Shown: positions 10,857 to 61,887 of the stretch, one piece after another
How positions within the stretch are numbered: position 1 is the first letter of the stretch
How the letters are laid out: each line of letters starts with the position of its first letter
Source: Clytia hemisphaerica
Lineage: Eukaryota
Reading direction: 5' to 3'
NCBI RefSeq assembly: GCF_902728285.1
Contig: NW_027103286.1
Span: 3,228,497 to 3,292,496 of the forward strand
DNA length: 64,000 nucleotides
Position numbers and translations under genes: made by a program
The notes under the pieces: model-generated
What the model was told of the DNA's origin: nothing
The model's database searches: none
The model's input: the letters and a program-made list of their open reading frames with translations, nothing else

Positions 10857-12478
10857 TACCGTGAGTGGTCCTAAATTAAATTCGACAGCCCTGCCTAAAT
10901 CCGATAGGGTCTTTCAGGCGTACCCAATCGATGAAATCGATACCACAAGTGTTACGCGTAAGCCAAATCGCGTATTACGAACAACCTCTAAATTGCCGAG
11001 TACAGGAGAAAAAAAATCGAAATTCAAAATGGCGGCCAAGGCCACGATGATAACTATCAAAAATCTTTGTTTTTCATTCAGCTATTGCAGCTCAATAAAT
11101 CAATGAAATAATTTGAAATAAAAAGTAAACAAACCTTGAACCTTTCATGAATCCAAATAAATAAAAGTATTCATCTAAAGTGAAGATTACATTTCAAAAT
11201 AAAACGATTTCCAAACCAACCTAAAGTAAGTCTCTGCCAACATAAAACTTCTCTGCGGGGTCACTGACAAGGAGTTACGACTTCAGACTTTAGATTCCAA
11301 TTCTTGTATAGGCTGCAACTACACTGCCAAATGATATGTCTTACAAAGACTTCCAATTGGGTCCCATAAGTTAAGAAAATGACATTATCTTATAGCACGG
11401 GGGTTCTGTTTTTAAAAACAAACTTCAAAATAAAATTGTTAATGAGCTTGTTACTTAACATATCACTTACTTACATAATTAATTTATGATATAACACCCC
11501 TTTCTTAAATAAATGGCCTCTTAAAGTCTTTTATGTTTGCCGCAAGAAGGAAGAAAAATTTTATTTGACCCCCGGTTTTTTCTCTCGTTTTCTAGCCATT
11601 TCGCGCGTGTTAGTGTAGACACAACTTTAATCCGGGGAAATGAAGCGTTTTCATTGGTCTAAAATTACAGATGGTCACGTGACCAGAGTTTTTATCCAGG
11701 GAAATGCCGTGGCCGCAATGTTTTGCTTTAGTGAGATTGACCATTTTGTTGTTTAGATTTGAGCGGGCGAAATTTCTGTACAAATCAAAATATGGCTTCG
11801 TTGGAATACCGGTTGAAACACTTGTGATACGGGAAATCAATCGATATTAATCGATCTTAATCGATAACAATCGAATTCAATCGATGGCTAAATCAATAAT
11901 AATCGAATTTAATCAATGAAAATCGATACCAATCGATAATAAAATTTTACGTTCCTATCGATTGGCCATGGATTAGTAATCGATCGATCATTGAGTACGA
12001 ACGACTTTTAGCGATTGACATCGATTAAATCGACAATCGATGTTATCGATTGGGTACGCCTGGAAACTAAAATAAAAACAAACCTTTCGCTGGCGCTGTG
12101 ACGCAACGAAGATACCAAAGTGTCAACTAAACTCAGAGATTTGATACATTGAACCAAATGAACCAAACAGAATTAACAATGATTGCTTCTTATAAAAAAC
12201 ATAATTTTTTATTGCAATATATATGTACAACGTCATAAATGACAGCAGTAACAGCATCATATAAAGTAATTATTATTTACAATTCACACTTTTTAAATTA
12301 CATTGATTGGCATCTTGACATTATAGCCATCTTGTTAGATGTTTCGTTTCGAGAGTTCTTGCAATAGTTTATCATTCAACTTGGAGAGGGAATGTTTGTA
12401 AACATAGAATTTTTTTCATAGCAGTTATTTGGGGGTCGTAATTAGGCAGGGCTGTCAGATTTAGGACCACTCACGGTA
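10857..12478. mobile_element. Non-autonomous TIR element of about 1.6 kb. TIRs are about 50 bp (TACCGTGAGTGGTCCTAAAT…GACAGCCCTGCCTAA.T.CGA…GGGTC). It encloses an AATCGAT-type satellite.
   Basis: The left end at 10857-10912 is the inverted complement of 12432-12478. A small related copy of 375 bp lies at 38277-38650. The internal ORF 10861-11106 is not credible. Confidence 0.55.
11820..12050. repeat. Satellite with a unit of about 11 bp (AATCGATnnnn) inside the 10857-12478 element.
   Basis: More than 15 tandem AATCGAT cores. Related AATCGAACG and TTCGATTACG arrays lie at 42590-43010 and 13780-13850. Confidence 0.7.
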
Positions 12479-12654
12479 GCTGACAGGATCAACTTTTGTT
12501 TTTTTGACAATTTTCAGGGTAGAAATTCGGAAATCTTTCAACTTTTTCTTCTACTTTTAGTCATTTTTGCCACTGTACAGAGGGTGAAAATAAGAAATTT
12601 TTCGATTTTTCGTTCTGACAGGGTCCAAAATTCAGCAAACATTCACAGTCAGGA

Positions 12655-12760
12655 ACAATGTCTTAGTTAGGACAATGGCCTAACTAGGACAATGGCCTAA
12701 CTAGGACAATGGCCTAACTAGGACAATGGCCTAAGAAGGACAATGGCCTAAGAAGGACAT
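12655..12760. repeat. Tandem repeat of 19 bp, about 5 units (GGACAATGGCCTAACTAGG).
   Basis: Exact tandem copies, with a partial inverted copy at 12765-12800. Confidence 0.8.
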
Positions 12761-15009
12761 TTTCTTTATGTCCTAGTTAGGCCATAGACAACCTAAGTAG
12801 GATATTTTTAATTTGAACCCCCATTTTAGATATTTTAGAGGAAAATGCGCATGCTAAAAACAAAAGAGTGACCTTTAATTTAATTGAATGTATGTTGAAA
12901 ATTTCTTCAAAATCTACAGAAGGGTTTTTTCTCTATGTGTCTTTAAATTTACAATATTATGCTCTTTAATTTAACTTAACCATCGCCACTTGGTCTACCA
13001 TAATGAAAATTCCCGATTTTACAAATAAAGGACTGTCTTCATCATAAAATTTTGGGTTTTTGTAACATGTAGACTACTGTAGGCTTTAGGGCTTGAGTTT
13101 TCAAACTATCAGTAAGATATTTCTTCATTCCTTCAACCAAAATATTTGAAAATCACCAAGAAACTTTATTTTTTGGTGCTCTTTCGATTGGCGATGGTAA
13201 GAAAGTGCGCATTTTGATTTTGATTTTGCGTTATAGGCAATTTCTACTTATTTCCTAGTTAGTATATACATGATGTCCTAAGTAAGACATCATCATCATC
13301 CTGACTGATTCAGATCCGACAGAATCCACTTTTCATACTCCAGCGGCACTTCCCCGTCAGCCGTCAAGTTCAGTGCCCCCTGTTCTATCTTCTTGTCTTC
13401 TTGTCATAACTGGCACTGTTGAACTAATTTCATACAGAGTGATCAAAAATATATAGTGAAAATTCTGATATTAGAAAAAACTAGAAACAATGAGCTAGTG
13501 ACTATACTAGCTATACTGATAATTTTATTGCCCTCGGCCCCATCTAACCATGGTGGGGCCTGCGGGTATCACTGTAAACCAAAATATCTCTATCAAGAAA
13601 TTTTCCGTCTCACAGAAAAAAACTGCTTTGACCACTAAGTTATGTCATTCAAAATTTCCAGACCACTAACCCCCGCCGGGTTAGTGAAAAAAGTTCGTCA
13701 ATACCCCTGTACAATTTTTTTTTGGAATAGCCCAATGCAATCAAATAATTGCCATTCAATTGTAAACCCAATGGGATCGTAATCGAATATTACCCAGGAT
13801 TTGCTGTTCCATTGCTTCGTTTCGATTACGTTCGATTACGTTCCAAAGCTCTTAGTCTAATTAGTCAGGGCGGCTTCCTTTAACTACACGACTGTGCCTA
13901 TACCCCGGACAGTCTGGGATGTCCGAAAAACTATTTTTCCCAGGACATGTGACTTGCACCACCACGCGCGTCCTGTAGAGGCTTGTTTCTGAAACCATTT
14001 TAATGTGCATAGTGCTTTGTTCCGAATTTGCATGTTTTTTTTGAAATTTGTCACCAGTCAGGCCTACTACCTTAAGGGAAGTAATTTTCGTGGTCTGAGG
14101 GTATGAAATTGGCGTTTTTTGCTAAACTTATTTCTACGGTTGACACCCACTTTTTGTTGAAATTCTTTTATTTCCCTAGGAGTTTTCAAGAGAACTTATA
14201 TATAGTAAAAATTATATTTCGCGAAAAAATTTCAGGGTAGACACCTAAAAACGCTAAATTAGTTCCTGCAAAAATTAGTTCCCTTAAAGTGATAGAAACA
14301 AAGCCACCTTACACCTAGATTCAGAATAAAAAGAAAAGAGAATCTCAATGAAATAAAAGAAATTACACTTTTTTGATGCATGGAGTTAGGCCCATTTTTA
14401 ATTTAATTGGACTTAATCAAACTTAAGCAAACTCCTTTTGGTGGACATTATGACCCTTTTATTGTGAAATAATGATAGACTTTTAGGCCCTAAAATTATG
14501 AAAGATTTATGAACTTACAGGTAGGCTGTTTTTTAATTTTAAACATGATTTTTAAAACACATGGAAAACACATATGGGGGCTAGAAAGCTAGTTAAAGTT
14601 TTTTTTAGCTTTTTTTCCAAGTGTGAAAGTCTGATTTTGAGAGAAAATAGTTTTAAGTTCAACTATAGGTCTACATTATTTAACTTCATCACATGTGAGT
14701 TGCATTTTCAAAAAAACATCAGGTATAAAGGTTTTCAAGCGTGAATTTTTAGATTTGATGTTATTTCCGGGGGTCTAAAATTTAAAGTGAATCCTTCATT
14801 AAGATGGGGGGTCTTCCAACCTCAGAGGGGTTTTTTATTTGTGTTTTGTGCCAAGGTTGGCCAATGATTTGATTTTCAAACGAATATTTTTTTTAAACCA
14901 GAACTATCTCAAAATTGCCAGAAGAGTCGATTATTGTCAAAAAAGAGTTTTTCTTGAATTTTTACATTTTTACATTTATTTGCCTTTTGGGCCAAATTGA
15001 AAAGTCCCG

Positions 15010-16101: not shown

Positions 16102-16724
16102 GGACCTACCCCGGTGGAGGTCCTATAAATTAACCTTTGTCCGTTCGTCCGTTCGTCTGTTCGTTATTAGCTTTCCTCATGATTGGCTCATTAGTTTTTT
16201 CTGATTTTTTGCACAAAGATTCATAACTATAAACCCTCGAATGTGACGGAGCCCGATTTTCAAAAAAAAAAAATTTTGGGCAAATTTGGGTCAAAAAACG
16301 GCTAAAAAACGGGTTTTTTGGACTTTGTGAAAAATTAGGTCGTTAATTTTTTCTGATTTTTTGCATGAAAGTAGGGTACCATCGTAGGTAAAAGATGGTT
16401 CAAGCAGATTTATGCAAAAAAATTTTGTTGGCTCAAAAAACGCATGTTTATCTATAAGAATCACTATTAATAAGCATACATCAATGTTCTTAGTCAAATT
16501 AATCAATTTTTTGATGAGATATGTTTTTTTTGCTCTCGAAGTCTTGAATATGAAAGAATATTTCAAGAGCATGAAATTTTGGTTTCTAAACGTGTTTTTT
16601 TATAAGAAATAAACAACTAATTTTAATAGATCGTCACTATTTGTGTTCTGAATGATTGTTTAATGGTCACGCTTTTATGTAGATATCAATTATATATGTG
16701 TTAAATGCATAACCAGGTAGGTCC
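16102..16724 (+). mobile_element. Non-autonomous TIR element of the GGACCTACC family. The TIR is GGACCTACC(TGG) … CCAGGTAGGTCC, with a subterminal (CCGTTCGT)n microsatellite. A tandem duplicate of its 3' 180 bp extends to about 17015.
   Basis: Both termini are visible. The body is nearly identical to 48077-49080. It recurs at 23461-25036, 27586-28053 (inverted), 4250-4620 (partial) and 1-43 (truncated by the window edge). Confidence 0.65.
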
Positions 16725-23460: not shown

Positions 23461-25036
23461 GGACCTACCTAAGGTAGTCCTTTAAATTAACCCTTGTCCG
23501 TTCGTTCGTCCGTTCGTTCGTTCGTCTGTTGCCAGCTTTTCTCGGGATCGGCTCATTAGTTTTTTCTAATTTTTTGCACAATGATGCAAAATGGCAATGC
23601 CCAAAATGTGACGGAGCCCGATTTTCGAAAAAAAAAATTTCCGGCCGAAAATGGCGGAAATATGCCGGAAAAACTGGTTTTTCGGCATTTTCTCGAGATT
23701 TCATCATTAGTTTTTTCTGATTTTTTGCTCAAAGATGCGTATTAACAATGCCCAAAACATGGTCTAGTCCGATTTTTGAGAAAAAATTTTTTCCGGCCGA
23801 AAATGCCGGAAATATGCCGGAAATCGCCGTTTTTCTGGATTTTCATTGGACTTTTCCATATAATTGGTTGTTTTTTCATTCAAAAAGATTATCAATAGCA
23901 ATTCCCACCATCAAGCATGTTTCAATTTTCAATAAAATTGATTTTTGAAGCCGGAACTTTCTAAAAATCGCCGGAACAGCCGATTTTCGCCGGAAAAACG
24001 GTATTTCTTGAATTTCTTGAGCTGTACTTTATATTTTTTCATGAAATTTTGCACATTGATGCAAAATGTCAATGCCTAAATTGTGACGGAGCCTGATTTT
24101 CGAAAAAATTCATTTCCGGCCGAAAATGCCGGAAATATGCCGGAAAAACTGGTTTTTTGGCATTTTCTCGAGATTTCATCATTAGTTTTTTCTGATTTTT
24201 TGCTCAAATATGCGTATTAACAATGCCCAAAACATGGCCGAGTCCGATTTTTAAGAAAAATTTTTTTCCGGCGGAAAATGCCTGAAATATGCCGGAAATC
24301 GCCGTTTTTGCAGATTTTCATCGGACTTTTTCCTTATAATTGGTTGTTTTTTCATTCAAAAACATTATTAATAGCAATGTCCACCATCAAGCATGTTTCA
24401 ATTTTCAATAAAATTGATTTTTGAAGCCGGAGCTATTTAAAAATCGCCGGAACAACCTATTTTGCCGGAAAGACAGTATTTCTTGAATTTCTCGAGCTGT
24501 ACTTTATATTTTTTTATGAAATTTTGCACACTGATGCAATATGACAATACCTAAAATGTGACAGAGCCCGATTTTAGAAAAACATTTTTTTCTGGCCGAA
24601 AATGCCGGAAATATGCCGGAAAAGCCGGTTTTTTACATTTTCTCGAATTTTCATCAAAAGTTTTTTCTGATTTTTTGCAGAAAAATGCGTATTCCCAATG
24701 CTTAAAACATGGCTGAGTTTTTTTGATTTTTGAAAAAAATTTTTTTTTGGTTGAAAATGCCGGAAATCGCCGTTTTTGCAGATTTTCATTAGATTTTTTT
24801 CTTGTATTTCACTCAAAAACATTATTGATAACAACATCAAGCATGATTCAATTGTCAATAAAACTGATTTTTGCGACCAGAACTTTCTATTTATTTTTCC
24901 CCTACAACCCTTCCCTCTCCCCCATCAACAATCAATGATGAATTTATTGCGTTATGCATTTTCGCTAAACGATATACTTTTTGACTGATTTTTTTCTCCT
25001 CGCATTTCTATCCAACTTTCATCATCAGGTAGGTCC
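23461..25036 (+). mobile_element. GGACCTACC-family TIR element whose internal about 480 bp module is tandemly amplified about 3 times (23540-24900). It is inserted in intron 2 of the ankyrin-repeat gene.
   Basis: Left TIR GGACCTACC at 23461 and right CAGGTAGGTCC at 25026-36. The repeated units begin with …ttgcacaatgatgcaaaatggcaatgcccaaaatgtgacggagcccgattttcgaaaaaa…ccggaaatatgccggaaa…. Confidence 0.6.
23540..24900. repeat. Macrosatellite-like tandem array of about 3 units of 480-520 bp, derived from the GGACCTACC element's internal module.
   Basis: The units at about 23540, 24040 and 24520 share over 85% identity. Each carries the motif TTTCCGGCCGAAAATGCCGGAAATATGCCGGAAA twice. Confidence 0.7.
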
Positions 25037-30211: not shown

Positions 30212-31225
30212 ATGAACAAGTCGCTCAGAGGTAATTCAACGTCCAAGATAATTGATAATGAACTTGCTCCATGCTGGCAAAGCAAATCACTTAAATATTT
30301 AAACCTGAGCTTTGGGCTATACAGTACTTTGATAACCATATTTGGAATTCCAGGAAACCTTTTCATTTGTTTTGTGATAATAAAGGGACAACTTTTGAAG
30401 TCATATCATTTTGTGTTCATCTTATGGTTAGCAGTTTCAGACTTGGTGACGTGTCCATTCCAGCTCCCTCTGGACGCTACAGCTTATTACACATATGATT
30501 GGGAAGAATATTTCATTTCTCCTGTATGGATTGTTTTTGTCAACGCTTTTTGGTATTTTTGTTTTGGTTGGACGATATTCATCCTATTTTTCTTAACACT
30601 GAATCGATTTTATGCAGTGAAGTACCCTCTCCGTCATTTGAGAGTTACCAGAAGTTTGATTAATAAATCTATGTTCGTGGCATTCGCATTATCGGCTGCT
30701 ATTTTCATATTTGCTTTTTTTATTCAAGACTATCCAGAGCCTGGGTATTACGACTTCTTAATGCCAAATTGGGCTGAAGGATTGCTCCTTGCTTTCTTAC
30801 TGCTACCCCTTTTCGCAAGTATGTTGCTGTACGGCTTCATTTTCGAGACTGTTCGAAAGCGACGCAGAGACGCTCAAAGGGAGAGCTCACTCCGTGGGAG
30901 GGTGACAGAAAATCGAATGTACATCACAATGATGTTTTTGGTGATTATCACTTGGCTTCCCTTCAGTATCTATCAAATATATATGCTTTTCGATACCCAA
31001 ATATTTTTGACCTGCACAGGCGAATCTATAGACTCCTTCTTGGCAGCCCTGATTAACCTGAATATTGTTGGCAATGCTTTTATTTATGGATATTCAAATG
31101 CTGTCTTTAGAAAGTATTTTAGAAAGATACCATGCTGCAAGCGACAGAATGATAATGATTGTGCAGTTGAATTGAATAGAATCAGATCAAATCTTTCAAA
31201 TAACGTTACTGAATGTGCCCCGTAG
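30212..31225 (+). CDS. Intronless class-A (rhodopsin-like) orphan GPCR, 337 aa. It has seven hydrophobic segments. NRFYAV replaces DRY at the end of TM3. There is a W..P in TM6. NAFIYGY replaces NPxxY in TM7. The tail is Cys-rich, consistent with palmitoylation.
   Basis: Single uninterrupted ORF. Its TM spacing and GN…LAVSDL…NRF…W.P…N..IYGY landmarks are diagnostic of 7TM rhodopsin-family receptors. It lies inside an intron of the minus-strand WD40 gene. Confidence 0.8.
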   Translation: MNKSLRGNSTSKIIDNELAPCWQSKSLKYLNLSFGLYSTLITIFGIPGNLFICFVIIKGQLLKSYHFVFILWLAVSDLVTCPFQLPLDATAYYTYDWEEYFISPVWIVFVNAFWYFCFGWTIFILFFLTLNRFYAVKYPLRHLRVTRSLINKSMFVAFALSAAIFIFAFFIQDYPEPGYYDFLMPNWAEGLLLAFLLLPLFASMLLYGFIFETVRKRRRDAQRESSLRGRVTENRMYITMMFLVIITWLPFSIYQIYMLFDTQIFLTCTGESIDSFLAALINLNIVGNAFIYGYSNAVFRKYFRKIPCCKRQNDNDCAVELNRIRSNLSNNVTECAP

Positions 31226-48076: not shown

Positions 48077-49080
48077 GGACCTACCTGGAGGTCCTATAAA
48101 TTAACCTGTGTTCGTCCGTCCGTCCGTCCGTCCGTCCGTCTGTTACCAACTTTTCTCGGGATTGAATCATAGGTATCTTTTGATTTTTGGTACAAAGGTG
48201 CAAAATGGTAGTGGTCAAAATGTGACGGAGCCCAATTTTCGAAAAAAAAAAATTTTGGGCAAATTTGGGCCAAAAAACGGCTAAAAAAATATTTTCGCAA
48301 AAAAATTTTGTTGGCTCAAAAACGCATGTTTATCTATAAGAACCACTATTAATAAGCATACATCAATGTTCTTAGTCAAATTACTCAATTTTTTATGAGG
48401 TAGATGTTTTTTTTGCTCATGAGGGCTTACCTTTGAAGAATATGTGTGTTTAGACAGGAAATTTTGGTTGCTTGGCGTGTTTTTAAAGAAAAACTGGTCA
48501 AATTCGTTATTTTTTTATAAGCACATTATCAATTACTTAGGTATTAGCTTTTCTCGAGATTGGCTCTTTCATTTTTTAAGATTATTTGCACAAAGATACA
48601 TAACTATAAACCCTTGAATGTGACGGAGCCCGATTTTCGAAAAAAATATTTTTGGGCAAATTTGGGCCAAAAACGGCTAAGAAACGGATTTTTTGGACTT
48701 TGTGAAAAATTGGATCATTAATTTTTTCTAATTTTTTGCATGAAAGTAGGGTACCATTATAGTTAAAAGATGGCTCAAGTAGATTTTTGCAAAAAAAATT
48801 TGTTGGCTCAAAAAACGCACGTTTATCTATAAGAATCACTATTAATAAGCATATCAATGTTCTTAGTCAAATAACTCAATTTGTTTTATGAGATAGATGT
48901 TTTTTTTGCTCACAAAGTCTTTAATACGAAAGAATATTTCAAGAGCATGCACGTTTTTCTATAAGAAACAAACGACTAATTTTAATAGATCGTCACTATT
49001 TGTGTTCTGAATGATTGTTTAATGTTCACGTCACGTAGATATCAATTATAAATGTGTTAAATGCATAACCAGGTAGGTCC
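48077..49080 (+). mobile_element. GGACCTACC-family TIR element, about 1 kb copy with an internal partial duplication.
   Basis: Termini GGACCTACCTGG at 48077 and CCAGGTAGGTCC at 49069-80. The (CCGT)n subterminal microsatellite is present. It is near-identical to 16102-16724. Confidence 0.65.
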
Positions 49081-49594
49081 ATAAAAGTCACTTGTTATTT
49101 ATTAGAAAGAATGTCAGTTTGTAGAAATATGGGTCTATTATATATTAATAAAAAGATACGCAAAAATAAAAAGTACACCCGAATTTTAATACTGAATTAA
49201 ATATCAGCATGAAAAATATCAGTACACATTTTTTACATAAAGCGAAACTTTGTATACTGTATCGTTATGGAGAATATTCTCTCGAAATAGCGTTCCGTTT
49301 TTCTTTAGGACAGACTGAAGTTGACTTTAAACTTTTGAAATTGTATTGATTTTGTCTGTAAAAATACTTCGCTTTCAATAAAACAACAACCAACCCAGTC
49401 CTCCCATACGTGCGTAATTTAAACGCTGTTTTAACTTTTCAACAGTCAATCCACAATTTCGTTTATGTTGCACCAATCTCGTACCCAGAACCACTTGCAC
49501 CTCAATTTGAAAGTTTCAAAATTTAAGCAAGAAATGTTCCGGATATGAAGCATTCAGACTTCCATCGTGCATCTACAATGAATCGAAGCATCTT

Positions 49595-49808
49595 TTAATA
49601 ATAGGGGTTCCAGTTACTCTCGTCTGCTGGTTGTAGCTCTCCAGTAACCAACAAAATAATATCAACAAACCACCAAATACCAGCTCCTCCGATGGTCAGT
49701 AGTTTACCAACTGCTGTACCTGTATGTCCTAGACAGAAACGATCCACGCCGAAGAATCCAACAAGTATCGAGTATAACAACGTCGTTACAAAATAATGAC
49801 CCGAATAC
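49595..49808 (-). CDS. TM2-domain protein, terminal exon encoding both TM helices and the DRF motif ([71 protein letters not shown]).
   Basis: Acceptor aattttgcag|GTATTCGG, phase-matched to the previous exon. Canonical TM2 domain (hydrophobic – DRF.LG – hydrophobic). Stop at 49595-97. It looks TM2D1-like. The signal-peptide exon was not located and is presumably upstream past the MITE at 51206-51832. Confidence 0.7.
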
Positions 49809-50891
49809 CTGCAAAATTAAAGTCGGAAATATGTGAAAATTGGTGCTCTTTGCACGTTGATACTGTATTTAATAAACCCCTGTCTCTCGGCGGCAATTTT
49901 TTTACACTTGATGTGCCGTATCGTCTTTAAATTTCCATGAAATTTTTTCAAAAGAAGTCCAAATATCACGAAACTAGCTTTGAATTCTGATTTAAAAATC
50001 CGTAATAATTAGAAATTTCCTTTTTACACCGGTCAATGGGGCAGCTCTTGAAAATAAGACTTGCAAATTATAACAAAATGGTTGTAAGTTACAATGTAAC
50101 AATTATTTGTTGAACCATGGAATAATAAAGAAAAACAAGAGTTGAATTTGTTGGTAATTGGTCGTCAAAGTCTTTTGATTTCTTTTATAAAATGTATCAA
50201 AAGAAATTCTAAGTTCGCCCGATGAAATACGACTTTTTAGTAGAACTTAAGTTTGCTCTGAATATTCTAACTCTACTAATATTGTATCATTATCTAAGAT
50301 TTCTACCCTTTTAATATACGATATTAAATAAAACTTAGCCACACGAGACAAGTTTTTGTTTAGTTTCGTTGTCCGTTAAATTTTGTTTTGAAAAGATATT
50401 TTCTTAAGCCAAAAAATGAAAGGTTCTTTATAAGCACAAACGATTTCAGACTCAATTTGTTAACAAAACGTCACTTGAAAATTTTGGAGGAAAGCATCAA
50501 GAAGTGCACTTTGAAGAAAGCATTGATCGAAAAATATTGTCATTTGATGAAGGATTGCCAAGTTTACAGGCCTTTTTTAAGTCCAAATATTTTCTTTCAA
50601 CGATGGCAGAAACAATGAATCTCGCCTCATCTAATTTCTAACACTTAATGAACCAATGAGATTTCACCTATTGACAAAAGAGCTCATCAAAAATGCATGA
50701 TATATACTCTCGGGTACCTAATAACCGCCCCCCCCCCACTTTTGATTTTTGGTAAACTGTTTTTGAAAGTTTCCTCTTTTGGCCTAATTCTGCTGTATTA
50801 GCCTCCTTTTCAAAAATCAAAAATGTTTCACCCAGGACATTTTTATTCTAACCCCCTGCTTATTAAGTTTTGAGATTTTTCTCATACTTAC

Positions 50892-51007
50892 TTAATGCAG
50901 GGTACGTTCCCACGGAGGAAAGTCCGACTTCCACAGCATTCAATACCATCCAATGCTTGACACCTCAACTTTGTAAACAGAACATCTTCGTGTTTTTGGC
51001 CTCCGTA
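50892..51007 (-). CDS. TM2-domain protein (TM2D family), Cys-rich ectodomain exon (YGGQKHEDVLFTKLRCQALDGIECCGSRTFLRGNVPCI-).
   Basis: Acceptor ctttttag|TACGGAGG. Donor ATTAA|gtaagta. Only one frame is open. The C.ALD.IEC.G.R.F...VPC pattern matches the N-terminal region of TM2D1/2/3. Confidence 0.5.
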
Positions 51008-51205
51008 CTAAAAAGAAGAAACAAAATGACTAGCATAATCATCAAGAGTGGCTGAAGCAAAGTCTTTTTGTTTGGACTTCATTAGAAAAAATTTTGGCTG
51101 ATATTTTTCAAATTTTGGACATTTCAAGACTAAAGTCACGACGAAGAGATTTCTCGCATTCTAGAGAAACTTAATTCTGAGTGTATTTAGACAGGGGAAA
51201 TAAAT

Positions 51206-51832
51206 ACAGTAAAACCTCTAATTAACGGACACTCTAAAAGGCGGACACCTCTGATTAGCGGACGATTTGATTTTCCCCGGCCGTTTCCTAGTCAAATCCT
51301 CATAAAAAAGTTTCTAAAAGGCGGACACTCAATTAGCGGACCCTCTAATTAGCGGACAAATTTTTTCGCACGAAATGGCCAAAACCCTTATTTCAGCTCT
51401 CCAATTAGCGGACATTGAATATCAAACGGGTCACAAACGTCCAAAATCGAGAAAAAATTTTTTAGATATTTTTATTTCAAGCACTTATTAGTCTTATTAT
51501 TCAAATTATTTCTACAAATTTCCAGTTTTCCCAGGTTTTCCCTTGATCCATTCAACGAATTGTATTTTCAATTTTGGTGTTATATTTCTAGATTTTCTTT
51601 CATTTGTTAAAAACTAACTTGTTGCGTTTTAATAACCTTTCTCTTGTTCTTCTATGACCTAGTGAATGCAGATAAGTACTTTAGACCCCAATTTTGTATT
51701 TTCGACACCCTGGGATGGCCTAATTTCAAAATTGGAGCTCCGAGATCAAAAGTTTCTAAAAGGCGGACACTTCTAATTAGCGGACACTAACCCCTTTCCC
51801 CGATGGTGTCCGCTAATTAGAGGTTCCACTGA
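51206..51832 (-). mobile_element. Second copy of the GTCCGCTAATTAG MITE, inverted relative to 25073-25688. It lies upstream of, or within, the TM2D gene.
   Basis: The reverse complement of this span aligns along its full length with 25073-25688. Confidence 0.65.
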
Positions 51833-53019
51833 GGTCCGGTTTGAGGGGTCGCTGTTTGAATTCTTAACCAGTTGGCAGAATTCTTAACCAGCTGGGAGAC
51901 GAGTTCTTTACCAGTTTTTAGTGTGAAATCTGATCCGTAAAATGAGCTCAAGCTGAATGTTTTACCAGCTTTAAAAACTGGTTAAGACTTCAACTAGCGA
52001 CTCCTCAAGCCGGACCTGATCCAATACCTTAACGGGGGAAAAAATATCAGAGTTTTATTTAGTCGGAGTTTTATCTAGTCGGGGTTTTTTTCGTAGGGAA
52101 AAAATTTCGTCACCTAGAGCCATTTTCGTCACTTTCCCCCGACCAAAATTTCAAATTCGTCACTTTTCCCCGACGAAATTTACAACTTAGTCACTTTCAC
52201 CCAACTAATAATTGTCCAAATGAAATGGTTTCCTTCATTAGCTCGAAAAAAGATCTTGTAATTCGACGTTTAAAGCACTAATTTCGGTTAATAAAGGTGT
52301 TTATAGCCCTGCAATACAACTGTCAATCATTTTTAAGAAAACTGATTGGATGATTAATGTCACGTGGCCGGTCAATATTAAGCAGTTATTGGACAAAGTC
52401 GAATCCAATATGCAAAAATGTTGGGCGTGCGAGAAAAGATATTGGACGAGGCTTCGCCGAGTCCAATATCTTTTCTCGTAGCCCCATATTTTTCATATTG
52501 GATGAGACTGCGTCCAAATAAATGGTTTATTATCCGTTCATCGCTAAAATATTTCTCGTTTTCAAACATAATTCTAATTTATAGAATAGGCTCATTTATA
52601 AGGCCACGCACAAACGTTTTTGGTCAAGGAATAGGTAACAAAGAGCTAAGAAAAATCAGATCATTTATTTTTTATAAATACACACAATCCATCAAAAAAA
52701 ATATTTCAAAAAGTATGTTTTGAAACCAAGTGTTTTCTCCGTTCTCTCTTTTTTCCTTTAATCCTAGGAAGCGTTTCTCTTTATAAAAATAATTTTACAT
52801 AAAAATATAGCAAGCTTTGTTTCGAAACTGCTGATGCAAGATTTAATTACAAAAAAATATAACATGATAGTTTTCGAGTGTTATGTATATTTAGTGCAAT
52901 CGGCTCTTGCATGTTGGAAATAATCTAAAATCATTCCTTTAAGAAGTCAATACCTTGACAGAGTAAAATTATACAAGTCATGGCAAAATAAAGGTCTCAT
53001 CATAATCATTGTTCACTTC

Positions 53020-53115
53020 ACTTACACATCACCTGCGTGGCCGAGTGGATAAGTCGATGAAACGGCAACTAGAGGGTAATAATTTCAGAGAGTTCGAATC
53101 CTATACGGTGCGACG
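53020..53115 (+). mobile_element. tRNA(Ser/Leu-like)-derived SINE head (CGTGGCCGAGTGGATAAGTCGATG…GAGTTCGAATCCTATACGGTGCGACGCGAAAATT).
   Basis: GTGGCCGAGTGG-TAAG-CG is the typical 5' half of a type-II tRNA but the remainder is degenerate. It shares a 3' tail with the 10040-10095 copy. Confidence 0.4.
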
Positions 53116-53384
53116 CGAAAATTGTGTTTTTTTGTCTGTTTTGTCAACATACACGGTATAAGGATTATTTTTTTATTTTACCCTAAAAACGAAATTTTTA
53201 CTGTACATTGTAGGTAGACGCTCTTATTTATTTCATTTTAAGGGACATAGTAGTGTTATACCAAAACGTTATTTGGTGATGAAGGAGAATTTAATTAAAA
53301 TTAAAATTGATCAAACTTTTTCTGGTTTTATGAGCTCTTGTTGATATTTTTGAAAATTTCCGTTAAAATTTTAAGAAACAAAAA

Positions 53385-53700
53385 TTGGGGGGGGGGGCAG
53401 TCAGGCAAATTGACCGACGCCGCGACGGGTATGTGCGGCGGTTAAGGGTATGTTTTCCAATTTATTTTATAATGCACTGTAAGGGTGGACTTTTAATAAA
53501 TGCACTGTAAGGGTGGAAATTTCAGCAAATCTGGGAAAAATTATTGCTCAAAAAATCTTGATTGCTCGAAAATCTTGATTTTTTTTGCTCTAAAAGAGTT
53601 TAAAATTTGACAAAAGCCAATTTTCGAAATTTTTATGCCGCACATACCGTCAATTGGTAACCCCCCCCCCCCCGGGAGTGTCACCTCAGCTCAATGCAGT
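53385..53700. mobile_element. MITE-like element with homopolymer termini (G11…C15) and sub-terminal inverted GGGTATGTGCGGC / GCCGCACATACC.
   Basis: It is related to 57300-57660, which is also poly-G/C flanked and carries GGTATGTGCCGCC. The ORF 57337-57666 is spurious. Confidence 0.4.
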
Positions 53701-54639
53701 TTGATTCAAGTACAGTATTTCAAAATGGATCAGGTTGGTTAGCGGGTGGAGAGTCAAGAGTCAAGAGTTTTATGACTTTCCCTTCTCTTGAAAATCCAAT
53801 GTTCCAAAACTTTCAACTAAAAAAATGCAAAAAAATCGTCTTTCGTCTTTTTTTATTATCTTATAAACACTTTTTTCAGAACCACAAGTGAAAAGAAAAG
53901 CAAAACTGACTGATTATGCTGCCAAAAAAGTGATTGACAGGTCTAGAAAATGATTGACAGGCCCGGGTTAGATATTTCCGTGAGCAATCTCGTTATATTT
54001 ATCAAAAAGTAATATACTTGTGGAAAGCCCAATTATTCTACTTTTTCGAATGCTGTGTCATGGAATTTTTTTAACAATTAAATAGAACGGGGTTTCCTCT
54101 GACGTAAACAAACCTCGAGTCCTATCCTGAAAATTGACATTGAGCGTAGAAAAAAAGACAAATGAAAGTATTTTCCTTTTTAATTCATATTTCCAATAAT
54201 TAAAGACTAACTTGAAAACACCAAGAGTGAAATGTAGCGAAATGCTTAGAACTCCTTGCGACTTAGAATTTTTTTTCAAAACTGAAAATTTGACCCCGGC
54301 TCGAACTACCAAAGTCTCTTGTCAATGATTCTGAGTCCGGCACGCTAGCAATGTACTATCGAGCCGATACAAAAACGTATACAAAATTGGTCAATTTAAA
54401 AATCCTTATAAAAACACTACTGCATATACGGGTGAACTGACCTCATGGGCTAGGCTAACTGTTTAGATCAATTACATACTCCAGGCTCCGTAAGGTTCCT
54501 TATTATAATTGAAAAAGCGTATACTAACAAACGATACGGAACTCGTGAGAGTGTTTTTAAACCGTTGTCTTTGTTTATCTTCACAAGATTTTGTTTATCT
54601 TTGCGACTTAGTTCTCGTTTTCGGCCTTTCGTCTACTCG

Positions 54640-54880
54640 TTTTCAGCCTATCACCTTCGATTTCAGCCTCCCGACTCCCGCCTCCCAGCTTTCGTTTTCA
54701 GCCTCCCGCCTCCCACTTTCAATTTCAGCCTCCCGCCTCCCACTTTCGTTTTCGGCCTCCCGCCTCCCACTTTCAATTTCAGCCTCCCGCCTCCCACTTT
54801 CGTTTTCAGCCTCCCGCCTCCCGTCTCCCACTTTCGATTTCAGCCTCCCGCCTCCCGGCTCCCGGTTCAGCCTCCCGAAA
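54640..54880. repeat. Minisatellite of about 30 bp, 8 units (TCAGCCTCCCGCCTCCCACTTTCGATTT).
   Basis: Tandem copies with small variations. All three ORFs across it (54509-54922, 54565-54891, 54643-54831) are repeat artefacts. Confidence 0.8.
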
Positions 54881-55595
54881 TTTCGGATTAGGTCTAAACC
54901 ACCATCATTAGAAGAACGTTAATTTAGACGTACAAAGCTATCGAAAGCAGAAACTTTCGTAAAGTCAAAAATACGCAGGTTGCAAAGTAAAAAGTCTGAA
55001 AACAAATCACGCTTTTACTCGAAATCTTTATGTGTTTGTTACATGACATTTATTTCTGATTGATTCGAATTTATTGACACTAATTAAAGTTATCAGCTGT
55101 AAGTTGTAAAGCAAGTAACATGGGGGGGGGGGTTCAAGGGGCACTGAATACCGAAATACCGGCAATATTTTCCCGAATTTCCATCAACTGAATTGTTGAT
55201 GAAATGAGGAGTAAGGGATACACTGTTTATCAGACGAACGATCTAATTTCCAAGTGCAAATAGCATAGAAGATAAAGTTTAATTACTGACAAAGTGCAAC
55301 CATGCTTTCTGTCGACCGAAGAAAATTTTGATTTCAACACTTTCTTATTTGGCTAAAAGCATTATGTTTTAGAATGGTTTTACTATTGTAACTAAGTACC
55401 TCAAAAAGCTCTTTTTATGGATAATTCTTTAGTTCTAATTTGAGAATTAGGCAGTACCTATCCCATCACCTTCCTTTGAGAAAAGGGCAATAACATGGTT
55501 GCTTGGCCAAGATTAGGGAGTCAAATCAAAAAAACATTTAAACAAAATAATGCGAGCGAAGAGAGCGCGAAAAATTTGTGCTAATTTACAGGTCC

Positions 55596-55990
55596 ACTAT
55601 GGGGCCGTCCACATAGTACGTACGCACTAAAATGTCGAAAATCGAGTACCCCCCCCCCCTGTACGCAAGCGTACGCAAATGGCTATACCCCCTGGTAAGT
55701 ATGTACTTTTTCATTCACCCCCTCCCCCTCGAATTCAAATCGTTCGGTTCGGACCTTTATTTCATACATGAAACTCAATGTTTATTAAGAAACTTTTTCT
55801 TTTCTTTGATGGGTATAAGAAGCGTAAAAATCGACAACAAAACAAGCAAAAAAGGGCTATGAAAATTTTTTCTCTGCGTACGTACATTTTCCTTTGACCC
55901 CTCCCCTCCCCCTGTACGCAAGCATACGTTTTTGAGAAGACCCCTCCCCCCCCCTTAGTGCGTACGTACTATGTGGACGGCCCCTATTGT
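55596..55990. mobile_element. MITE with TIRs of about 37 bp (CCACTATGGGGCCGTCCACATAGTACGTACGCACTAA) and internal poly-C plus CTGTACGCAAGCGTACG repeats.
   Basis: The termini are exact inverted complements. The ORF 55632-55862 lies inside it and is spurious. Confidence 0.6.
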
Positions 55991-58900
55991 GGCTAAAAGT
56001 GTGTTTTGTGATGTGAAATTAGGGAAAGGGACTCCAGATTGGTTTAGTCCGTCCGTCTGCCTTTGGATCAAATTCTACTCTAATAAAGAAAAAAGACATT
56101 TGTAAGTGCTTGAGAGAAGGTAGCACTTTATTTGTAAAAAGTCATTATTTAAAAGATAGTGGATTGACTATAACCACAAAAAAGTTGCCACTAGACTGAC
56201 TAGAGGTAGAGCTGTTTCTGACCCCAGAAGTTTGGGAGCTAAAGTGGTGCATACATACTGTGTCAAAACTGATCGTTTTAGAAAACATGGCTGAACATGG
56301 GTGTACTTTTGTAAAATTTAAGAACGTTTAGATTTTTGGAAGTCTCTTTATGTTATGAAGAAAACGGTTCGGAAAGATTTTAAAGTTACCGAAATACCGA
56401 AGTTTTACGAGTAAATACCGAAATACCAGAGCATTTTTAGGCAATTTACTGTAGCCGGCAGCATTTCAAATACCGGAATACCGTACTTTTTTCTTAAAAT
56501 ACCGAAAGACCGGACAGAAAAAAGGCCGATACCGTGTCACCATAAACCTTGACCCCCCCCCCCCTAACATGGGAATAAAATCACGTGAACTTTTTCAAGT
56601 AATCGCATGTTTTGACTGCATTGATATAATTTTGCAACCCGTGTATTCGTGAAATTTACTTTGAAGGACAGCATTTAAGGTATTTCTACAACCTTAAGTG
56701 TATGTAATTCCAATTTAGTACTCGCGAAAACAGGTTTCAGGAAACAGGAAAATGCCAAAGTAATACTAGCTGGTACTACTGTAGCAGTAATAATTCATAG
56801 CATTATACGCAGATATACTACGGTAAGTCCTCGATGATGATATCGCTCCGGTTCTTTGACACACCCCTGTATCAGTGACCCGGTCGTTCTGCCAGGTTCT
56901 GCCTCGGTAGATAAACCTACAGACACATTGAGATTATGAGATCTGAAAATCGGACCCGGTAAAAATTTTTATCACTGATACTGGGTTTTGATATGCATTT
57001 CCAAACTTTCTAATAAATCTGCTTACTTTATAGCATCCATAACCTATAGCTTCTCTTGTTGATTCATTAACATCAAGTAGTTTATCACAAATCACAAATT
57101 CTTCTGGCCTAAAAATGAAATTTTAAATTACTTTTAAGAATTTATATGCATCTCAGGTGACTTAAGACAAGTTCCCAAACATTATTTTGCATGGCAAAAA
57201 CTGCTTCCCATCATATTAACAAGAGGAAAGTGCTGGCTTGGTCAAAGATTTCAATAACTGATTTTGGCATTATGAAATACATAAAAAAGACACCTCAAAG
57301 TAAGATTCAAACCCGGGGGAGGGGGTAATTAGGCAAATGGAGGGTACGGTATGTGCCGCCCTTAAGCTTAAGGGTACCTTTTTTGGATTTCCAAAGTCTC
57401 GCTTAGGGTCAGAAATATCAGACAATCAAATTTCAGTCCCACTAAGGGTCGGAGAAATAGGAAAATTTCAACTTTTTACCCCCGGAAGGATCGAAATTTG
57501 GTCAAACTTGGTCAAATTTGTCCCGGTAAGGGTCATAAAATTCACAAAATTTTCCTTTGTTTTCTCCTTTTTAGTCCCGGTAAGGGTCCGAGGGTCGAAA
57601 GTCGGGCGGCACCCCCCATCAGCTTGCAACTCTAGTCCCCCCCCCCGGGATTCAAATGACATATGACAAATCTATTGATGCAATCAACATTAAAATTCTG
57701 AATGAATGGAAATGCATATAGGTATAATATTAAGATTCTGAAATATTAATTGAATAATTTTCATTAGAGGGTCACTTGATTGCTTGATTTGTCAATTTTG
57801 TCAAAAAGACCTCACTGACACCTACTGGACAATTTTGAATACGGACACTGTCAAAAAGAAGGTACAAAAAATGGCTGTTTTTGCACCATCTTTACACCCC
57901 TGACTAGTTTTGAAAATTACAGACTCACATAAATGTCTACTAGGCCCTACATTGATACCCATGGTTAAGTTAAAAGGTCTGTCTTCGGACCCATGCTGGT
58001 CCCGTAACTGTAAAAGGTATACTTAAAGAGACACATGCCTTTGAACTGTGGTCCTAAAAAGGACAATGAATTGTCCTAACTGAAAGGATAATGAGTTATC
58101 CAAGATCAATAAGTCTTGATAGGGTGCTCCGATCAAGTCAAAATTTGGTACACATGTAAAACATTATCCTACAACAAGATTCATAGTGTGCAAGGGGGTT
58201 CCAGGTCCCACCTGAAAATTCAGGTCCCACCTTATCCTAAAATTCCCACCTTCAGCCCAGACTCCCAGATCCAAGCTAAAAATACTTGTTCTTTCTTTTT
58301 TATAACTTGAATCAATATACAGTAGGGGAAATTGTTTACCGGAAGAAAATTTTTCTTAATACAAAACCCGTTTTTTGCTTTGTACATTACGGTCCGCAAA
58401 ACATTGTTCGTCAATATACGATTATGATTGTTAAAAATAATAGCAAAAATATTTCTTGCGTATTGTTCACATTATGTAAGTATAGTTTTTATCATTATTT
58501 TACTGTGGTAATTATTCGTATATGTATAGTTCCATTTTCTCAAAATACCTTATTACACTTATATAACTACTCATGTTATTAAAGCGAATTGCTTACCTCA
58601 CGTTAATTATTACAAATGTTTAAACAAAATTCGAGCCGTGGTTATTTTCGAAAACCCTGCCTTTCGCGTTAATAAATTCTTGCACTCATTTTACCTGCGT
58701 ACTTTTACTTGACTAGTCATATAAGTGTAATAAGGTAAGCAAAAGTAAAAAATAAATCATTCTTAAAGATATTTATTCAAACATCAAATGACCTGTAATA
58801 ATAAAAAGAAAAGTTTAGCATGGTAAAAAATTATTTATAAAATATATAAAAAAAATATATCATAAAATCTGAAAATAAGAAATTTTACTTTAAACTTTTC

Positions 58901-61167
58901 CAAAACACCCAAAGTCCCACCTAAAGAAATTAACTCCCACCTTAACTTGTTTCTCCCACCTAAAACCTGGAAAACCCCAAATCCCACCTGAAAATTTTCG
59001 ACCCAAATCAGCAAACCCCCCCCCCACTATTCTGGGGGGGGTGCACACTATGAGATTCCAATTTTAAAATCTTGTAAAAAGGTCCAAAAATGGACAATAA
59101 ATTGTCCTAAAAAACAACTTTAAAACAAAAATTCATTCAAGATCCTTACAGATCAGGCTCGAAATACCTCAAACATAAGATAATTAAAATTAAAATCGTT
59201 GAACGGCCCCTCTCGTGGACAATCTGTTGTCCTAAAGGCAAATGTATTAACCACTTTTTGTGCTTTAACACTAGGGATTCAACCATTTTATCAGCTTATT
59301 TAAGCTAAAATTTTGCACAAAACTGTATGAATGGTTCACAATTAATTTTCAGGTAGCAAATTTTGGTTATTCGGTCCCAAAAAGGACAATGATATTGTCC
59401 TTTTTGTAAAATATCACGGTTAAAATTAAGGACAACTTTATTGTCCTATTTTGGGACCCAAGAACGTAAAAAGTGGGCCATTTTACTATTAGGAGTTTAA
59501 AACAACCATTCAGCTTTAGTTTAAACTAGGTTTGGTATAGACTAAGCTTAAATGGCCCTTTTTAGGACAATCTTTTTGTCTGGACAACAAATTAGCCATA
59601 TTTGGGCCATTTAACCCCTGGAGTGATTTTAACCATCTTTTACCCTTTCTAATGTTAAATATAGAGGTTTTCTGAGATTTTCCCTAATTTTTTATGTAAT
59701 TTGAGCAAGTTATTACAAAAGCCTTATTTTAAGCCATTTTTGGCATGGTGCATGATTTGTACCTTCTTGTTGACAGTGTCCATACAAGGTAATTACCCTC
59801 TGACAAAAAGATGCATTGAGGTAGAGTAGTAGTATACACTCTTTTCTCATTCAAAACCAGGAATGCGCCACTTTTCTTTTTTGTGGTGGTTGTATAAGAA
59901 TGGACTTGGTAAGAATTATATTAATTAAATTCACCATAATCAAAATTGACCGAAAAATGCAAATTATGTTAAGTTAGCAACAGCAACTAATATTGCCATC
60001 TTTTTCGACTGAAATATGTATCATAATATTAATAATAATAATAAATTGTTGAATTAATAAAATGTTAAATTTATGTAGGGGTTTGGGTTATAGGAATTAT
60101 GAATAGTCCATCATAACTATAAACTATATGGCTTAGAAATATGGCAGTGTGTCTGTCTGCATTTGTGTCTTGGTCCTGGAGTTGAACCTATGCTAAGGTA
60201 ATTCTCCCAGAGGGGGGTACTACCCTTGCCAACCGACAGGGGTGTGCTGCTGAAGTTCGAAAAATGGACCCTGTTCTGTAAAGTGGCTGGGTCTTGTTTT
60301 ATGAAAAAAGTGACCCTGAATGAATAGGACTGAAATTCCAAAATGTTCTCAAAATGTTCTATTTTTTTCTAAATTTCCCCAAAAAGGTACCCTACGAGGT
60401 ACTGATTTTTCTATTTTGGTGTTTTTGCAACCCTACCCCGGATGACTGAATAAAGATACGCTGGACCCTGATCCTGATGGACCAGCAGCCACATCCCCTG
60501 CCTGACCTGTAGCTGTACCCCCTTTTACCCAAGTAATTACTCTGGGTAATTTGGGGCAAATGAGTATACTTACAGTAAAGAACAGTTCACCAATGGAGAA
60601 TACGGATTATCACACGTTTCTTCAGCAGAAGTGACAGTGAATATTACAAAGATACACAGAAAAATAAACCAACAAAATCTAGAAATTTCTTTCATCTTCG
60701 CTCTCGATTACCATATTTCGCCGGAGTTACTTCGTGTAAACAAATCCCGTATTTAATTAGCCTGCTATTTGTTAGCAAGAAACTTCGTGCTACTTCTACA
60801 TGAAAAGTTTTCAAAATGGTAGGCCTAGGCGGTACAATTTTTTAAAATCTAAGACATCATCCACCATATCACATCATCCTGTCATCACTGCTGACTGCCA
60901 TTTGGATCTAATTATATTGATTAAAATTCATCAGCTTTAACTCGAAAGAACATGCCACGAGATCGATCAAGATCACCACGAAGGAAAGGTAAATAAGGAC
61001 CTTTAAAGAGCTCATTTTTAACCTAAAGTTTTCAGAGAAAAACCTTTGGCTTTACTTGACAGTTAGTGAGAGTACTTCGATTTGTGAAGCGTCTTTACGT
61101 GGCTTAGAACAAAGAAAATAGCAAAAGAAGAAAGGAATTACCCATAGGTAATATTACGGAAATAGAC

Positions 61168-61335
61168 CTTTTTTTAAAGAGGCAACCCTGTTGAATAATT
61201 ATGTAGTCCAGCATAAAAACAATGATACAGCCAGGCATAATTACTGTTTCATGCATATTATAATAATTATGCATGGCTATATCATTGTTTTTTTTGCTGG
61301 ACTACATAATTATTCAACAGGGTGGCCTCATTAAA
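61168..61335. mobile_element. Foldback element with arms of about 75 bp (AAAGAGGCAACCCTGTTGAATAATTATGTAGTCCAGCATAAAAACAATGATA…). A second copy is at 61888-62075.
   Basis: A long, nearly perfect inverted repeat separated by a loop of about 20 bp. It is duplicated about 720 bp downstream with over 85% identity. Confidence 0.6.
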
Positions 61336-61887
61336 AAAAGGTCTATGGGAATCCTCATATCGAATACATACCGTGTGAAGTCGGTAACTTGCATCGGAGG
61401 GAAACTTGCATGCATTAGCAGCCATCAAATGACTGGATGCTCTACTCTACCATTTTGTTTTGATTTAACTTTGTATTTTAATGACCAGCCAGGTCATTCA
61501 TTTGAGGGGTATGCATGTTAGCCTACACTGATGCAAGTTACCCGTTCTAGGGTAGAGCATCTTCTGAAAATTTCATAGACCTTTTCGCCTTTCCATCCGC
61601 CATATCGAATGGCATGCAAAAATTATGGTGGTCTAATTGCTGTGGTGAGATTTCATTGAAAAGTATGCAAAACCTATGCAAAAAGAAAGTATTATAAAAC
61701 TTACATGCATAATTGGCATTATATATTAAAGTTAAATCTTGTAGAAGAAAGATTAAATTTGCTTCTCTCAAAAACTAAAAATGATTATAGTCCCTCATAT
61801 CACAAGCACTTCAAAAAAACATAAAAACATTAGACATATCTCAAGTTGAAAAATCACCAGCGAAAATAATCCTTATTCGGCTGACAG

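Follow-up and report, generated by a model that had tools for sequence, protein, structure and literature searches.

Palindromic dyads in intron 1 of a Clytia hemisphaerica TM2D2 orthologue as likely parts of a decayed transposon copy

Why should a short palindrome recur within 1.4 kb of an intron? The question arises in a 64,000-nt stretch of the Clytia hemisphaerica genome (the window), where the initial annotation described six copies of a 19-bp motif, GGACAAT-n4-ATTGTCC. The cluster is real, but the n4 formula (GGACAATNNNNATTGTCC) has no match in the window, even if two mismatches are allowed. The true dyad is GGACAA-n4/5-TTGTCC, which is the same as GGACAAT-n2/3-ATTGTCC, and it is 16-17 bp long, not 19. 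Exact copies begin at 58061, 59092, 59217, 59384, and 59430 (the coordinates given earlier were off by 1-6 nt). These five copies in 1.4 kb compare with an expectation of 0.02, and none of 100 shuffles reached five. The cluster also contains one or two degenerate copies. The proposed sixth copy, at 59565, is degenerate (GGACAATCTTTTTGTCT); together with an inverted partner (59582-59608), it forms a weak palindrome. For the shorter pattern GGACA-n-TGTC, 1.95 matches would be expected in the whole 64-kb window; there are 17, and 13 of these lie inside the single element at 57843-59781 that is discussed below.

Every dyad forms the core of a longer unit of ~30 nt (GGTCCnAAAAAGGACAATnnATTGTCCTAA), in which conservation reaches past the dyad to GGTCCnAAAAA on one side and to TAA on the other. 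On the plus strand, we find U1 (58050-58079, GGTCCTAAAAAGGACAATGAATTGTCCTAA), U2 (59081-59110, GGTCCAAAAATGGACAATAAATTGTCCTAA; 27/30 identical to U1), U3 (59206-59235), and U4 (59373-59402, GGTCCCAAAAAGGACAATGATATTGTCCTT). U3 retains the dyad (GGACAATCTGTTGTCC) and the TAA, and its left part has diverged (GCCCCTCTCGT). U5 (59427-59459) is on the minus strand, inverted relative to U4, and the two together make up a 110-nt foldback at 59361-59470. Part of this foldback (59372-59460) had been called a perfect palindrome. It is a palindrome, but only a near-perfect one, with AAAAAGG in one arm versus AAAATAGG in the other; over 59361-59470, the DNA fold has an energy of -25.1 kcal/mol (z = -5.8). 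Last comes a degenerate inverted pair at 59550-59612, which comprises U6a (59554-59581, plus strand) and U6b (59582-59608, minus strand), is bracketed by AAATGGCCC and GGGCCATTT, and folds weakly (z = -2.15). The order by orientation is thus mixed (+ + + + - + -), and the spacer within the dyad varies between 2 and 3 nt. Both the mixed orientation and the variable spacer count against reading the units as transposon modules.

Conservation is concentrated in the units. Averaged over pairs, identity reaches 7.9/10 in the core bin, is 5.0-5.1 in the flanking bins, and drops to 2.2-3.9/10 past about -20 and +20. Three units are at least 27/30 identical, with flanks at background. None of 30 local alignments between spacers scored above shuffles after correction for multiple testing. 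Sensitive blastn against the rest of the window showed no longer shared repeat; its only matches were the units of 30 nt and two pairs of inverted arms. We can set aside a decayed tandem repeat of ~150 bp, as the sequences between the units are not above shuffles in either orientation.

Another potential explanation is that the units have no function. Template switching, slippage, or gene conversion between hairpins might have copied a short palindrome locally in the hairpin-prone DNA of this AT-rich intron, with no protein and no selection involved. This would fit with the presence of palindromes at several scales (the dyads of 16-17 nt, the inverted pair at 59550-59612, which spans 63 nt, the 110-nt foldback, and an 8-bp stem that reappears on removal of an insert described below). 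It would also fit with the degenerate copies (U3 and U6), with the variable length of the loop, and with the stems, which show identity only and no covariation. But slippage or template switching should carry adjacent sequence along, and the 30-nt units lie 125-167 nt apart in unrelated spacers. Nor would it be expected that three units stay nearly identical despite background-level flanks, or that the core of the dyad is present again at both tips of the surrounding element. We consider this explanation to be unlikely.

That surrounding element, which is non-coding and spans 57843-59781, contains all of the units. Its TIRs (57843-57865 on the plus strand, GGACACTGTCAAAAAGAAGGTAC; 59759-59781 on the minus strand, GGACACTGTCAACAAGAAGGTAC) have the form GGACACTGTCAA[A/C]AAGAAGGTAC and are identical at 22/23 nt. 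These are the only two matches in the window (0.00 expected), and they are inverted relative to each other. Both tips carry a shortened dyad, GGACAcTGTC. Abutting each tip is the direct repeat ATAC (57839-57842 and 59782-59785), which is a candidate 4-bp TSD; the alternative is TA (57840-57841 on the left). Because TA is palindromic, the flank can be read as ATAC or as TA plus one more base of the TIR. Given this ambiguity, we do not assign the element to a superfamily.

A second non-coding TIR element, of 871 bp (58182-59052), separates U1 from U2. It has perfect 11-nt TIRs (CATAGTGTGCA) and a 5-bp TSD, AGATT (58177-58181 and 59053-59057). Excising it restores a palindrome with an 8-bp stem (ACAAGATT..AATCTTGT) over the junction. 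This insert is outside the motif system. Its 5-bp TSD would fit Transib, but its termini are CATAGTG, with T at position 3. The TIRs of Transib start with the heptamer CACAATG, whose CAC is perfectly conserved across all Transib elements (PMC1131882). Once the insert is removed, the host element is 1063 bp long and the unit spacings are 158, 125, and 167 nt.

We lean towards the view that a single 1063-bp copy of a cut-and-paste transposon, non-autonomous (MITE-like) and unclassified, contains about seven modules of ~30 nt, each with a dyad as its core; this copy lies in intron 1 of TM2D2 and was later split by the nested 871-bp TIR element. In more general terms, the palindrome cluster is most likely the ordinary anatomy of a mobile element. 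The transposon context that had been suggested earlier was borne out, as the whole cluster is inside a non-coding, TIR-bounded element with flanking direct repeats that is itself split by a second TIR/TSD element. The result that the initial annotation said would undercut its binding-site array, namely that all motifs come from one transposon, is largely what we see: the cluster lies within one transposon copy. The host element is a single copy within the window.

The element does not seem to encode its own transposase. There is no ORF of at least 150 aa in or near it (57.8-59.8 kb); its stop-to-stop ORFs are fragments of just 60-100 aa that look like low-complexity sequence. No transposase-like fragment was apparent by eye among the stop-to-stop ORFs from 54-64 kb. 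The entire window has only three ORFs of at least 150 aa, and all of them resemble host genes, with no transposase. (The ankyrin ORF is 79% identical to its best protein match; a homology search with the GPCR ORF returned nothing.) MITEs are usually under ~800 bp. This copy, at 1063 bp, is longer, and "non-autonomous element" is a better name for it than "MITE" in the strict sense.

In most respects, the element resembles MITEs and other non-autonomous TIR transposons: it is non-coding and intronic, it has TIRs and candidate flanking duplications, and it is nested with other MITEs. In Ac/Ds, En/Spm, Emigrant/Lemi1, and the IR-DR Tc1 elements, subterminal or internal repeats help to build the transposition complex. 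Here too, a short motif that is related to the TIR tip recurs internally in both orientations. But the repeats of those systems are within 100-200 bp of the ends, while these are mid-element. Also, the motif is a dyad within a 30-nt unit, and the element is longer than classical MITEs. Emigrant, a MITE from Arabidopsis, has subterminal repeats that are bound by its pogo-like partner transposase, Lemi1 (PMC1636448). The units in Clytia had been proposed to be subterminal repeats as well, and this does not hold: they fill the central ~700 bp, with the first unit 207 nt from one end and the last unit about 170 nt from the other. An internal position is less typical for transposase sites than a position near the ends.

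A foldback transposon had also been proposed. In FB elements, the ends are long inverted arms, which consist of tandem sub-repeats and account for most of the length. The host element shares with them a high degree of inverted symmetry, with short units in both orientations, but its units are neither tandem nor mirror-symmetric about the centre. Also, homology between its arms is limited to the first ~45 nt, with one indel, and its spacers resemble each other in neither orientation, so we rejected this class. Similarly, Tc1/mariner elements of the IR-DR type have a TA duplication and inverted repeats of ~200 bp, each with two direct-repeat binding sites. In the host element, the inverted repeats are ~45 nt, the units are not arranged symmetrically inside them, and the TA reading is ambiguous. 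We also considered whether the tips could be Transib-like or RSS-like (CACTGTC, 11 nt, ACAAAAAAT), but the TIR runs 3 nt past the CAC, and a 5-bp duplication is missing.

A cnidarian comparison is offered by the CMITEs of Acropora corals, which are ~100 bp long with TTAA duplications and a single conserved core of 75 nt (PMC2872659). Their authors suggest that the conserved internal region has a role in transposition (PMC2872659). As in the CMITEs, conservation in the Clytia element is found in the internal region rather than in the TIR, but size, TSD, and architecture all differ from the features described for CMITEs. The host sequence overlaps the TIR of CMITE family III by 9 nt (CGGACACTG), which is probably due to chance.

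A putative array of sites for a dimeric protein would fit with conservation that is confined to the units, and also with the dyad-like TIR tip. The variable spacer of 2-3 nt argues mildly against a rigid dimer. Judging from the sequence, the modules are probably transposase-binding sites. If so, the transposase that mobilised a once-active ancestor would have recognised both the modules and the TIR tips, and having several sites per element could have helped to assemble the transposition complex. In the master copy, the sites alone would have been held constant while the spacers drifted. The present copy is most likely an inert relic in the intron.

Could the units instead be separate insertions? 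Each unit or inverted pair might have inserted independently, as a tiny foldback MITE with GGTCCnAAAAAGGACAAT as its TIR, or be what remains of one. In this scenario, U4/U5 would be an intact copy of ~88-110 bp, and U1-U3 would be copies that have collapsed internally. Indeed, U4/U5 forms a tight 110-nt hairpin that has sub-threshold matches to miRNA hairpin families of the MITE type, and U6a/U6b is a second small inverted pair. But when we read the sequence around 59361-59470 and around each unit, we saw no TSD. And a dispersed, high-copy MITE should also be found in the other 62 kb, as the GGGGGTAATTAGGCA family is, whereas every unit lies within a single element of 1 kb. We consider separate insertions to be very unlikely. 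More generally, we found the unit nowhere else in the window, apart from a possibly related array at 12668-12785.

The genomic setting raises the question of regulation. The host element lies in the first intron of the TM2D2 orthologue and has a copy of a different MITE family on each side; one of these two copies carries a 7-bp TSD. The cluster is 1-2.6 kb from exon 1. The units might form a cis-regulatory module of the host, perhaps exapted from a transposon, with palindromic sites for a dimeric transcription factor near a divergent promoter. Since ACAAT/ATTGT is part of the half-site, a SOX/HMG-box protein would be the first factor to consider. The SOX core (AACAAT or CATTGT) overlaps the half-site GACAAT(G), and palindromic sites for SOX dimers are documented for SOXE and SOX18. 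The location in the first intron, and the conservation of the units but not of the spacers, would also be consistent with a regulatory module. The palindromic dimer site of SOXE is ACAAAGnnnnCTTTGT, which is also given as ACAAAG-n3-5-CTTTGT; spacers of 3-5 are enriched, and cooperativity is ~10-fold lower at 0-2 bp (PMC4445065). SOX18 dimers bind AACAAT-n5-ATTGTT, with a spacer of 5 (PMC6265484). In contrast, the 6-mer half-sites in Clytia are separated by only 2-3 nt, and ACAAT is preceded by G rather than by A or T, so they do not match inverted WWCAAW with a spacer of 3-5 or 5 bp. A SOX site would not explain the conserved flanks (GGTCCnAAAAA and TAA), and the cluster is exactly coextensive with an element that is bounded by TIRs and a candidate TSD.

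Comparison to relatives also speaks against a host regulatory module. Their TM2D2 loci (four were compared) are compact and share only the exons with Clytia, at 69-76% nucleotide identity. These loci total 46 kb and contain no dyads or anything comparable; their introns could not be aligned, and exon 1 was not located there. Overall, a SOX-type module seems very improbable to us. We count the apparent lineage specificity of the host element as supporting evidence for the transposon.

Searches beyond the window gave little. The strict pattern for the unit had no matches in the JGI metagenomes or IMG/VR. A looser pattern had 41 matches in these databases, but all were singletons, with no clusters, and none was preceded by GGTCC; many were AAAAAGG…CCTTTTT hairpins that resemble bacterial terminators. 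When we searched the literature with the half-site sequences, all that turned up were bacterial regulators and primers with no relation to the units. Among known RNAs (Rfam and miRNA hairpins), the cluster's best match was MIR9408, at 36.7 bits versus a gathering score of 90, which reflects the generic similarity of long hairpins.

If the dyads belong to a transposon, then the striking cluster reflects how a single decayed copy is built internally, in an intron that is filled with transposable elements, and it matters little as it stands. If the family proves to be abundant, then the unit would be a candidate transposase-binding site of an uncharacterised cnidarian DNA transposon, and the nested architecture would allow three families of transposable elements to be dated relative to each other. 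There is a slim chance of something more unusual. The unit could define an undescribed family, or even superfamily, of cnidarian DNA transposons whose transposase recognises the TIR tips and a compact, hairpin-forming dyad, GGACAAT-n2/3-ATTGTCC, that recurs along the element at nucleosome-like intervals of 125-167 bp; or else co-option of the array could have given rise to an enhancer of the HMG/SOX type in intron 1 of TM2D2. For annotation, the case suggests a caution: before palindromic "binding-site arrays" in the introns of cnidarians are interpreted, one should look for TIR/TSD boundaries.

Finally, a related direct repeat had been reported at 12655-12760. An array does exist there (12668-12759, plus strand), with 5.4 copies of a 17-nt unit (GGCCTAACTAGGACAAT) that match at 97%, followed by an inverted copy that extends to 12785. 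Its kinship with the cluster is statistically insecure: the array matches the ~30-nt unit with 3 mismatches at best, and a window would be expected to contain 2.15 matches of that quality. A relationship is plausible from the sequences, but this is suggestive only. The array and its inverted copy form a hairpin, AGGACAT-TTTCTTT-ATGTCCT (dG of -40, z = -10.2), and they lie inside another MITE-like element at ~12410-12835.

The palindrome cluster reported in the initial annotation is real, but the formula given there, GGACAAT-n4-ATTGTCC, has no match even with two mismatches permitted. The actual dyad is GGACAA-n4/5-TTGTCC, that is, GGACAAT-n2/3-ATTGTCC. The five exact dyads are at 58061, 59092, 59217, 59384, and 59430; only 0.02 were expected, and none of 100 shuffles gave five. 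The copy claimed at 59565 is degenerate (GGACAATCTTTTTGTCT), and its inverted partner at 59582-59608 is likewise degenerate. A larger palindrome, described as perfect, is present but only near-perfect, and it reaches 59361-59470 (DNA fold of -25.1 kcal/mol, z = -5.8).

The dyad is the core of an asymmetric unit of about 30 nt, GGTCCnAAAAAGGACAATnnATTGTCCTAA. Three of the units (U1, U2, and U4) are mutually identical at 27/30 positions or more. Mean identity across all unit pairs is highest in the core bin (7.9/10), is lower in the adjoining bins (5.0-5.1), and falls to 2.2-3.9/10 farther out than about -20 and +20 nt. Among the spacers between units, 0 of 30 local alignments (in both orientations) exceeded shuffled controls, given multiple testing. 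Also, a sensitive self-blast found no repeat longer than the units. Because the spacers are unrelated and identity is confined to the units, we reject a decayed tandem repeat with a long period. The units are short conserved modules embedded in sequence that is otherwise unique. Neutral local copying driven by hairpins is hard to reconcile with units that are scattered among unrelated spacers. Alternatively, each unit might be a separate insertion of a tiny foldback MITE, but the units lack target-site duplications (TSDs) and have no copies in the rest of the window.

All of the units lie between two inverted copies of a 23-nt sequence, GGACACTGTCAA[A/C]AAGAAGGTAC, at 57843-57865 and 59759-59781. 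This sequence occurs exactly twice in the window (0.00 expected). Both tips are directly adjoined by ATAC; the palindromic TA permits an alternative reading as a TA duplication. The arms are alignable over about 45 nt and diverge beyond that, so we rejected the suggestion that this is a foldback element. The tips themselves, GGACAcTGTC, are a contracted dyad. The pattern GGACA-n(1-8)-TGTC has 17 matches in the 64 kb (1.95 expected), and 13 of these are inside the element. The dyads are best interpreted as repeat modules internal to one copy of an unclassified, non-autonomous transposon with terminal inverted repeats (TIRs).

Nothing keeps the units in a dead copy, so the contrast between units and spacers must already have been present in the master copy, with its units conserved and its spacers unrelated. 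Given this contrast and the dyad-like TIR tips, we predict that the units, together with the tips, are recognition sites for the mobilising transposase. For Emigrant and Lemi1, the partner transposase is documented to bind subterminal motifs of the MITE (PMC1636448). The prediction fits imperfectly with a spacer that varies (2-3 nt) and with units that are internal and have mixed orientations. A host enhancer that binds SOX-type dimers would account for the half-site, which is similar to ACAAT/ATTGT. But the dyad spacing is 2-3 nt, versus 3-5 nt for SOXE (PMC4445065) and 5 nt for SOX18 (PMC6265484), and the 30-nt unit is longer than a SOX site.

A second non-coding element (58182-59052; 871 bp) is nested between U1 and U2. 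Its 11-nt TIRs (CATAGTGTGCA) are perfect, and its TSD is 5 bp long (AGATT). Removing it in silico, along with one copy of AGATT, restores a palindrome with an 8-bp stem at the junction and leaves a host element of 1063 bp, with unit spacings of 158, 125, and 167 nt. A 5-bp TSD is a hallmark of Transib, but the termini have CAT instead of the invariant CAC (PMC1131882). Close to both ends are TCCCACCT repeats, in direct rather than inverted orientation.

Both elements lie within a TM2D2 orthologue on the minus strand (49594-60693). Using tblastx against two related-species loci, we placed exons at 49594-49855, ~50882-51040, and ~57024-57110; a putative first exon with a signal peptide (~60577-60693) was read by eye. 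Given this placement, intron 1 (~57111-60576) holds the host element with its insert, plus two copies from another family of MITEs. The first (57306-57650) has TIRs CCCGGGGG/CCCCCGGG and a clean 7-bp TSD, ATTCAAA; its relative at 60195-60440 is inverted. These two copies are on either side of the dyad cluster, and the family, with GGGGGTAATTAGGCA-type ends, recurs at ~12410-12835 and ~53387-53677. Roughly 73% of intron 1 is transposon-derived. Only the exons are common to the window and the related loci (69-76% at the nucleotide level), and the introns in the window are much enlarged by transposons relative to the compact introns of those loci. No dyad was found in 46 kb of the related-species loci. 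The most economical account of the cluster is ordinary transposon anatomy within a transposon-rich intron, and the element is at most another representative of an already known type.

Beyond these loci, the strict unit pattern had no match in JGI metagenomes or IMG/VR. A looser pattern had 41 matches there, all singletons and none after GGTCC (0/41); many were AAAAAGG…CCTTTTT hairpins that resemble bacterial terminators. Rfam yielded hairpin matches below threshold only.

The array near 12.7 kb (12668-12759) contains 5.4 copies of a 17-nt repeat, GGCCTAACTAGGACAAT, followed by an inverted copy with which it forms a strong joint hairpin. An AGGACAT…ATGTCCT hairpin closes the array, which is itself contained in another MITE-like element. 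It had been proposed to be related to the dyad cluster, and GGCCTAACTAGGACAAT does resemble the left half of the 30-nt unit. But chance alone would give 2.15 matches as good as this one, which has 3 mismatches, and the apparent kinship is therefore only suggestive.

Other repeats include a near-perfect foldback of 185 bp at 61162-61346 (58-nt arms, 95%; inner 29-nt arms, 93%). Its Rfam match to MIR1435 has 74 bits, short of the gathering score (94), and we therefore take it for a probable hairpin MITE. A putative first exon on the plus strand lies immediately upstream of it; read by eye, ~60954 seems to be the start of a divergent plus-strand gene (MPRDRSRSPRRK…). Similar pseudo-ORFs (…FFENRAPSHF…GRTDGRT) at ~4304-4606, 16294-16599, 23468-24924, and 48084-48866 mark a likely SINE-like or other high-copy repeat; this repeat is accompanied by a (CGTC)n tail (48113-48140) and by a tandem duplication of 475 bp (x2.4; 23572-24718). 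At 54675-54877, about 6 copies of a 27-nt tandem repeat, CTCCCGCCTCCCACTTTCGTTTTCAGC, give proline/serine-rich pseudo-ORFs in several frames.

From the relatives of its ankyrin-repeat ORF, described below, we take the window for anthozoan (cnidarian) DNA. It is about 35% G+C and has only three ORFs of at least 150 aa in 64 kb. One is an intact, single-exon, rhodopsin-type 7TM receptor of 337 aa (30212-31225; 7tm_1, E = 2e-21). No protein in a collection of 5.8 billion is homologous to it at E <= 1e-10, so we read this GPCR as a fast-evolving receptor specific to its lineage. Another is an ankyrin-repeat exon, whose closest named relatives are proteins from scleractinian corals (Oculina and Pocillopora; 54-55% identity), with matches of up to 79% identity in ENA and Logan.
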